Notes under the pieces: model-generated
What the model was told of the DNA's origin: nothing
Database searches by the model: none
The model's input: the letters and a program-made list of their open reading frames with translations, nothing else
Position numbers and translations under genes: made by a program
Source of the DNA: Escherichia phage ECO95 1-6-1
Sequence record: OR845911.1
Strand: one strand, 5' to 3'
DNA length: 1,484 bases
Part shown: in pieces, positions 955 through 1,484 of the stretch
How positions within the stretch are numbered: the stretch's first letter is position 1
Layout: the number at the start of each line of letters is the position of its first letter

Positions 955-1484
955 ATGTCACAGACAACAATTACACTGGCATTTGAACAGTGGAAAGCGC
1001 AGCAGGGAACCACGGGTGAGCCTGTTCTGCTGGATGAATTTGTATTCGCTAATGTGCCGGCACTTGACCCGGATCAGCCGGTTGACCGCAATGAAACCCT
1101 GCCACCGGCTGAACAGATTGTTCATCGGCAGGCCGTCAGCCGTAAGGGCGTGGTGAATGACAACGCTGTGGTGCATTCCGTCGTACTGGGGGCGGATGTG
1201 GGGGATTTTTCCTTTAACTGGATTGGTCTGATTAATAAGGCCAGCGGTACGCTGGCAATGATTGTTCATGCGCCATTACAGCAAAAACTTAAAACAGCTG
1301 AAGGGCAACAGGGGAATGTGCTTACGCGCTCGTTTCTGATGGAATATAACGGCGCACAGGCTGAAACCGGAATTAATACGCCTGCCGAGACCTGGCAGAT
1401 TGACTTTACCGCGCGTATGGCCGGAATGGACGAGCGCCAGCGCCTGGAAAATATCGACATCTTCGGGGCGGCGGCGTTTTTTGG
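955..1484 (+). CDS. Phage tail-fibre protein, N-terminal baseplate-attachment region (3' end lies beyond the window)
   Basis: ATG at 955 with a good SD 5 nt upstream; I translated frame 1 codon by codon to nt 1482 and found no stop (176 codons). This ORF is absent from the supplied track, presumably because it has no stop in the window. The product (MSQTTITLAFEQWKAQQGTTGEPVLL...) resembles the N-terminal part of P2 gpH as I recall it (ours DVGDFSFNWIGLINKASGTLAMIVHAPLQQKLKTAEGQQGN versus P2 EVGGFWMRELGLYDDAGTLIAVANMAESYKPALAEGSGR). The minus-strand ORFs 958..1269 and 1266..1460 overlap it and are treated as shadows. Confidence 0.8.
   Translation, partial: MSQTTITLAFEQWKAQQGTTGEPVLLDEFVFANVPALDPDQPVDRNETLPPAEQIVHRQAVSRKGVVNDNAVVHSVVLGADVGDFSFNWIGLINKASGTLAMIVHAPLQQKLKTAEGQQGNVLTRSFLMEYNGAQAETGINTPAETWQIDFTARMAGMDERQRLENIDIFGAAAFF

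Follow-up and report, generated by a model that had tools for sequence, protein, structure and literature searches.

Evidence for a horizontally exchanged distal tail-fibre and chaperone cassette in an HP1/ESSI-2-like prophage of Salmonella enterica

Introduction

The closest described counterparts of the fibre locus analysed here are those of P2 (gpH/gpG), PSP3 and Fels-2, which have in common with it the N-terminal domain PF12571, the J-I-H-G gene order, the PF03406 repeat and a Caudo_TAP chaperone; PF12571 covers aa 1-150 of gpH in both PSP3 and Fels-2. Parts of the P2 fibre have reportedly been exchanged horizontally with unrelated phages, and tail-fibre mosaicism as a pattern is said to have been first described, in 1992, for P2, Mu and P1. 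In Mu, the fibre tips are switched by the Gin invertase. For the Mu fibre chaperone (Tfa), a published model assigns binding of the fibre tip to a variable N-domain and trimerisation to a conserved C-domain (PMC9608196, citing North et al. 2019).

We analysed a stretch of 1,484 nucleotides (hereafter the window), at whose end such a fibre gene begins, together with the DNA downstream of it and its relatives. PSP3 shares the PF03406 linker (86% nucleotide identity) and the distal shaft module (87%) with this fibre, while PSP3 gpH gives no BLASTP alignment with its first ~298 aa and is related to that part at the profile level only. The tip and the N-domain of the chaperone recur in Fels-2 (87% nucleotide identity), a phage with an invertase, whereas this locus has none. 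Unlike the P2 type, the genome is of the HP1/ESSI-2 type, with the lysis genes between tail tube and tape measure, and unlike the P2-type relatives it has HP1_ORF34 and a hub gene after the fibre. The Quadragintavirus phages and SI7 have the same gene order as this prophage from the head-tail adaptor to the hub; the distal fibre of ESSI2_ev129 diverges from aa 285 and has a Collar domain (524 aa), and the SI7 fibre (648 aa), also with a Collar domain, differs distally from the one described here.

Two further systems resemble the locus in its distal part. ST64B (Sb24/Sb25) and 118970_sal3 share the distal fibre, aa 343-746, and the whole chaperone with it at ~91% DNA identity, although ST64B has a Mu-type baseplate and another fibre N-terminus, PF12571 being absent from Sb24, and the similarity begins abruptly at NGGDIPDK. 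The chaperone is a homologue, along its entire length, of that in the Mu S/U pair (PDB 5YVQ), and the two-domain Tfa model fits the module boundaries found here, while the Mu fibre tip is not detectably similar to this one. The locus very probably encodes a modular fibre, in which the distal fibre and its chaperone form a horizontally exchanged, fixed cassette.

Results

Genes of the window and the start of the fibre

The window contains three co-directional genes in the P2 order J-I-H, with open reading frames (ORFs) that overlap or abut. Its features are as follows (window positions).
1..366, plus strand: 3' end of the baseplate wedge gene (P2 gpJ/gp47 family); PF04865 Baseplate_J, E 7e-23, for the full ORF in the longer record described below
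359..946, plus strand: baseplate/tail protein of the P2 gpI family, 195 aa; PF09684 Tail_P2_I, 24.1 bits against a cut-off of 20.6
945..950, plus strand: ribosome-binding site AGGGGA of the fibre gene, read from the sequence and overlapping the gpI stop
955..1484, plus strand: tail-fibre gene, first 176 codons of 746 aa; the ORF leaves the window and goes on in the longer record (1486-3726)
961..1428, plus strand: P2 gpH-type N-terminal domain, aa 3-158; PF12571, 108.2 bits

The gpJ-family product is part of the platform to which the fibre attaches, and relatives of the window carry the annotation 'baseplate J/gp47 family protein' at this gene. The start of the gpI-family gene overlaps the gpJ stop by 8 nt; this gene matches phrog_1228 'tail protein' (PHROG, E 7e-92) and ends with TAG at window 944-946. 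A gap of 4 nt separates AGGGGA from the fibre ATG at window 955, from which the frame stays open up to the last base of the window, giving 176 complete codons or the first 24% of the full fibre (176 of 746 aa). Gene callers placed the fibre start of the identical chromosomal prophage at the same ATG, with a length of 746 aa.

The earlier note had taken this frame for a P2 gpH-type fibre of which the window holds the N-terminal anchor only, and the searches agree: PF12571 (phage tail-collar fibre N-terminal domain; cut-off 23 bits) matches aa 3-158 with E 5e-31, PHROG tail-fibre families match the fibre ORF with E values down to 1e-177, and the ORF is open to codon 176. Rather than stopping shortly past the window edge, the gene runs on through a variable distal domain to 746 aa. 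Searches of the N-terminal anchor against the PDB (phmmer and a 13-sequence profile) returned only chance matches to gyrase B (E ~0.4); because the anchor thus matches no solved structure, the case for baseplate docking is drawn from gene order and the analogy with P2.

The source prophage and its integrity

Positions 532-2015 of OR850886.1 reproduce the window with 100% identity. OR850886.1 is an unannotated 7841-bp record flagged UNVERIFIED_ORG and named 'Salmonella phage S.Kent 1-2-1', with a coverage of 4.9x given in its name. We refer to this record as L001, so that a window position equals the L001 position minus 531. L001 is in turn 99.99% identical to positions 9112-16952 of L123, a chromosomal Salmonella prophage (CP194313.1), and through these two identities the full fibre could be read. 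The record is thus a 7.8 kb fragment of a resident Salmonella prophage. In L123 the capsid, terminase, tail, lysis and baseplate genes stand in the HP1/ESSI-2 order, and a tRNA(CAT) gene neighbouring mug and rpoD marks the end of the prophage.

The closest named phages to the window are members of the Peduoviridae, namely the Quadragintavirus phages ESSI2_ev129, ev239, ev040 and ev015 (83% DNA identity) and Irrigatiovirus SI7 (70%). As part of the modular-fibre reading as a whole, and with the same high confidence, we regard the host phage as an HP1/ESSI-2-like member of this family of P2-like myoviruses, carried as a prophage in Salmonella enterica.

Two more short, unannotated phage records, OR845673.1 and OR844957.1, hold pieces of the region: 'Escherichia phage ECO95 1-6-1' is 100% identical to it across 734 nt and in 'Enterococcus phage Efm 3-10' the match is to the fibre, at 86% identity, which suggests host or prophage carry-over in these assemblies.

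It is improbable that the locus belongs to a decaying prophage remnant or a tailocin whose fibre is no working host-range determinant. Such a reading could draw on the origin of OR850886.1, an UNVERIFIED_ORG contig from a lysate assembly at 4.9x coverage, and on relatives with broken fibre genes, one through an IS30-type insertion (L093) and three through early stops (L034, L037 and L040). However, the surrounding tail, baseplate, lysis, capsid and terminase genes are all intact, the capsid genes speaking against a tailocin in particular, and integrase and CI genes are present in another chromosomal copy (L124). Nor is the sequence confined to the lysate contig: the three chromosomal copies examined (L123-L125) are at least 99.9% identical to OR850886.1, and the exact gpI protein of the window is indexed in 3070 blocks of public assemblies.

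The full fibre and its chaperone

The fibre ORF ends at L001 3726, giving a protein of 746 aa with one PF03406 'phage tail fibre repeat' at aa 301-342; its aa 285-367 match residues 97-179 of the Mu S fibre (5yvq_A). The fibre chaperone gene that the earlier note had proposed to look for beyond the window follows directly.
L001 3726-4301, plus strand: Tfa assembly chaperone, 191 aa; PF02413 Caudo_TAP, E 5e-31

The entire length of this protein shows homology to Mu gpU (PDB 5yvq_B, E 2e-37). On its 3' side the backbone resumes with phrog_1677, HP1_ORF34 and a 567-aa hub/spike protein.

Mosaic structure and junctions

A mosaic map was made by blastn of L001 against the fetched relatives. ESSI2_ev129 is ~82% identical over L001 1-2340 and again over 4275-7425, and SI7 matches L001 1-2539, resuming at 4273. 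The stretch between these flanks matches other phages: ST64B sb24/sb25 and 118970_sal3 at ~91% DNA identity over L001 2515-4288, the P1-like SJ46 over 2515-4069 and Fels-2 over 3066-4069. PSP3 matches in three pieces, L001 2376-2537, 2995-3525 and 4061-4288. At the protein level, ST64B Sb25 (Tfa) is 94% identical to the chaperone (177/188), and Sb24 is 81% identical to fibre aa 282-746 (380/470) and near-identical from aa 343.

The sharpest comparison is with a sister Salmonella prophage (L126), which is 98.8% identical over L001 1-2495 and 97.1% identical over 4275-7579 and carries a different cassette between these flanks, consisting of a 675-aa fibre end and a 175-aa chaperone. Its junctions with L001 therefore lie at L001 ~2495 and 4275, mosaic breakpoints of the kind for which the earlier note had suggested comparing fibre C-termini. 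In the base-level alignment the left junction, where the PF03406 repeat ends, reads ...AAMDNANG / NGGDIPDK, and the right junction is TGGCCGGAGGTACCGGATGTGGCGTGA, coding for the chaperone end ...WPEVPDVA and overlapping the start of the next backbone gene. The exchanged cassette thus comprises the distal fibre (from aa ~337-343) and the chaperone, ~1.8 kb from L001 ~2496/2512 to 4274/4288. Its GC content is 42-49% (L001 2600-4200, extrapolated window ~2070-3670), as against 53-60% in the flanking backbone genes.

Finer boundaries are visible inside the cassette. The match boundaries place the fibre tip (from aa ~681) and the Tfa N-domain together, both matching ST64B, SJ46 and Fels-2, whereas with PSP3, as with the second, inverted tfa of SJ46 and Fels-2, the match within Tfa is confined to the C-domain. 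Tip and Tfa N-domain would accordingly travel together, in agreement with the published modular Tfa model (PMC9608196).

Variation among fibres on the same anchor

In scans with the 176 aa of the window, species-representative genomes contributed 34 loci and IMG/VR 80, with 103 complete fibres on the same anchor, ~470 to 826 aa long. In these 103 loci the next conserved backbone gene lies 1.9-3.4 kb beyond the fibre start, which leaves space for a fibre and one chaperone. Measured in 20-aa windows, the share of loci identical to this fibre is 0.69-0.94 up to aa ~280-285, 0.50-0.64 at aa 281-340 and 0.28 at aa 341-360, after which it falls to 0.02-0.23. From this profile across 103 fibres, the lineage-constant part is ~285-340 aa long, about half of which the window holds, and the exchange point lies ~500 nt beyond the window edge. 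The earlier note's conserved N-terminus is therefore real, although its length of ~150 aa was too short. Its view that the distal part is variable and horizontally exchanged is borne out by the collapse of identity after aa ~340 and by an ST64B-like tip on a Quadragintavirus-like backbone.

Of the 16 closest loci, which have at least 96% identity in aa 1-285, five retain 86-90% identity over aa 343-520, as against 17-30% in the other 11; in several of these 11, aa 521-746 are still 59-72% identical. By this split, the distal fibre contains at least two or three exchangeable modules.

Some loci of the collection depart from the usual layout. The fibre frame stops after 10 codons in L034 (a Sodalis MAG), after 149 in L037 (Photorhabdus namnaonensis) and after 18 in L040 (Enterobacter sp. 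EA-1), probably as pseudogenes or through frameshifts. The IMG/VR prophage L093, the sole locus with an oversized fibre slot, was considered as a carrier of a diversity device and rejected: an IS30-type transposase gene (315 aa, 11823-12770) lies inside the fibre gene and splits off its C-terminal end. L023 (Morganella morganii) has two directly oriented copies of the distal fibre and chaperone (5535-6858 and 10886-12209, 84% identity); the second copy lies ~5.3 kb upstream and may belong to a second tail cluster or an adjacent prophage. The other copies found in the 103 loci are tandem repeats within fibre shafts.

A fixed rather than an invertible fibre

In the phase-variable fibres of the Mu G, P1 C and Fels-2 type, an invertase flips a segment with alternative distal fibre and chaperone cassettes. 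A switch of this kind could be suspected here from the company that the same distal cassette keeps elsewhere: in SJ46 it adjoins pin, with a second, inverted fibre/tfa pair and a crossover-like AAACCTTGGTTT at the cassette boundary; in Fels-2 it adjoins a DNA invertase; and ST64B has kept a truncated invertase remnant, sb27. At this locus, however, the idea is already refuted and its probability next to nil. There is no invertase ORF in the 5.8 kb downstream of the window, and tblastn with Pin and the Fels-2 invertase gave no match within ±10 kb in the 114 same-anchor loci. The crossover core AAACCNNGGTTT was not matched even with one mismatch allowed; inverted repeats in L001 reach at most 29 nt (at 76%), none being above chance; no inverted copy of the distal cassette occurs in 103 loci; and nothing but the fibre and one chaperone lies between the fibre start and the backbone gene that follows. 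The locus accordingly falls outside the invertase-switched fibre class, having neither an adjacent serine DNA invertase nor inverted crossover sites flanking opposed cassettes. The earlier note had pointed downstream for something unusual, and as far as the fibre is concerned no invertase, no inverted or duplicated cassette and no template/variable repeats were found there.

Traces of switching are seen at the boundaries of the cassette in other phages. SJ46 has an intact crossover-like core AAACCTTGGTTTAGG (L005 ~4960-4990), ~60 nt before the similarity to this fibre begins, and ST64B has a degenerate core GAACGTCGGTTTAGG (L004 ~4950-4990) together with the truncated sb27. Apparently the cassette has been transferred between settings that switch and settings that are fixed.

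A retron-like cassette at the prophage end

A reverse transcriptase (RT) does lie further downstream, 0.9 kb beyond the hub gene and just past the end of OR850886.1, in the following arrangement.
L123 16915-18015 (CP194313.1): retron-like cassette of non-coding RNA (ncRNA), small ORF and RT; its first ~40 nt lie within L001 7804-7841
L123 17254-18018: reverse transcriptase, 254 aa, YMDD; PF00078

A 61-aa ORF overlaps the RT start directly and is conserved with the RT; the cassette has no HTH gene. The ncRNA of ~170 nt is framed by the inverted repeats TCCTGACG...CGTCAGGA, and its core consists of variable GGACTCACTG tandem repeats between two near-invariant non-coding blocks. In the comparative alignment a conserved long-range stem, UCCUGACG...CGUCAGGA (a1/a2), frames two hairpins, one of which shows a compensatory change; the a2 (3') block is present only in the 13 loci that have the RT, and by eye the a1/a2 stem has co-varied in Xanthomonas. 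Folding of L123 16860-17100 alone gave z = -0.1, so that the RNA signal is seen only in the comparative alignment, and no Rfam retron RNA matched near the RT.

All the best PADLOC matches of the RT are retron RT types (RT_VI, 59.6 bits, E 7e-17; then I-B and IX), and its best NCBIfam match, retron St85, reaches 49.7 bits, far below the cut-off of 235. Homologues of ~250-260 aa are widespread in Enterobacterales and are found outside prophages too. Salmonella, Enterobacter, Cronobacter, Pantoea, Klebsiella and Providencia all have conserved versions of the cassette, and Xanthomonas a more distant one; the cassette stands beside umuDC in Klebsiella and beside MobA in Xanthomonas. It is present in all three chromosomal copies examined and in only 4 of the 114 fibre-anchor loci (L059, L060, L098 and L110), many of which end before that position.

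A diversity-generating retroelement (DGR), in which this RT, 4.4 kb past the fibre stop in the chromosomal prophage, would diversify the fibre tip, has a vanishingly small probability and is refuted as far as can be read from the DNA, since there is no template/variable repeat pair (no repeat of at least 17 nt is shared by the RT region with the fibre gene or with any other part of the locus, and no diverged copy of the fibre 3' end was found in 103 loci), the RT is not of the DGR clade, it travels with its own ncRNA and small ORF in non-phage contexts, and most prophages with this fibre anchor lack it. Its RT box, ...YGYPQSPVLA..., we take not to be a DGR-type motif. The earlier note's suggestion of an RT with template/variable repeats has therefore held for the enzyme, which is retron-like, and failed for the repeats.

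Type VI retrons have an operon of ncRNA, small protein, HTH and RT (bioRxiv 10.1101/2025.10.22.683967). The cassette resembles them (e.g. Retron-Vpa2) in having its ncRNA in inverted repeats, a small protein, an RT and RT_VI as the best PADLOC match, and differs in the absence of the HTH gene, an RT of only 254 aa, the lack of an Rfam match and scores below the curated cut-offs. We tentatively place it as a prophage moron between the hub gene and the tRNA attachment site that may represent an unclassified retron subtype, Type VI-like without HTH, a reading somewhat less likely than its alternatives taken together.

The surroundings of the cassette differ among genomes. In L124 the RT is followed directly by the integrase and CI genes, where the tRNA and mug otherwise stand, suggesting that the arrangement is tandem or circularly permuted. 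In Providencia the hub gene is separated from the retron-like cassette by a tRNA 3' fragment (L132 ~3500-3560). From these two arrangements, the position of the cassette relative to the attachment site varies between hosts. It is a sporadic moron, unrelated to the fibre, and the sole mildly novel item of the locus.

Distribution of the cassette among hosts

The phage backbone was found in 39 of 5,426 complete E. coli genomes, at ~82-83% identity, and none of the 5,426 had a match past L001 ~2532. All 44 plasmid records that match the distal fibre and chaperone cassette, and 19 of the 22 matching phage records, are from Salmonella. The cassette thus tracks the host genus, not the phage lineage, and this correlation supports a putative role of the distal fibre in receptor binding and host range. 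The receptors of ST64B and SJ46 are described as uncharacterised in a 2023 paper (PMC10670071).

Discussion

The modular reading of the fibre can be laid out along the protein. The first ~160 aa (PF12571) and the proximal shaft to aa ~285 are specific to the phage lineage; they would attach the trimeric fibre to the gpJ/gpI baseplate wedge, whose genes lie immediately upstream. A linker with one PF03406 repeat, aa ~286-342, leads over to the distal shaft and tip, aa ~343-746, which probably bind the cell-surface receptor. By homology with Mu gpU, the N-terminal domain of the Tfa protein would bind the fibre tip and its conserved C-terminal domain would drive trimerisation. The cassette may have been exchanged through recombination in the short conserved motifs at both junctions. 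Given the mosaic cassette and these short-motif junctions, a fixed module acquired by exchange would determine host range, rather than a switching or mutagenesis device of the prophage itself.

Tail-fibre mosaicism at this locus is a textbook pattern that was already known; the fibre itself is not novel, and these findings leave the current understanding unchanged. The locus has its value for annotation: it illustrates tail-fibre modularity cleanly, and its breakpoints can be placed almost to the codon. The Salmonella-type tip module is found on four tail architectures, HP1/ESSI-2-like, P2-like, Mu-like (ST64B) and P1-like (SJ46), and for this reason many Salmonella temperate phages probably use one receptor. 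This prophage and its sister L126, with flanks 97-99% identical, are essentially one tip and chaperone cassette apart, and matched prophage pairs of this kind help to predict or engineer host range.
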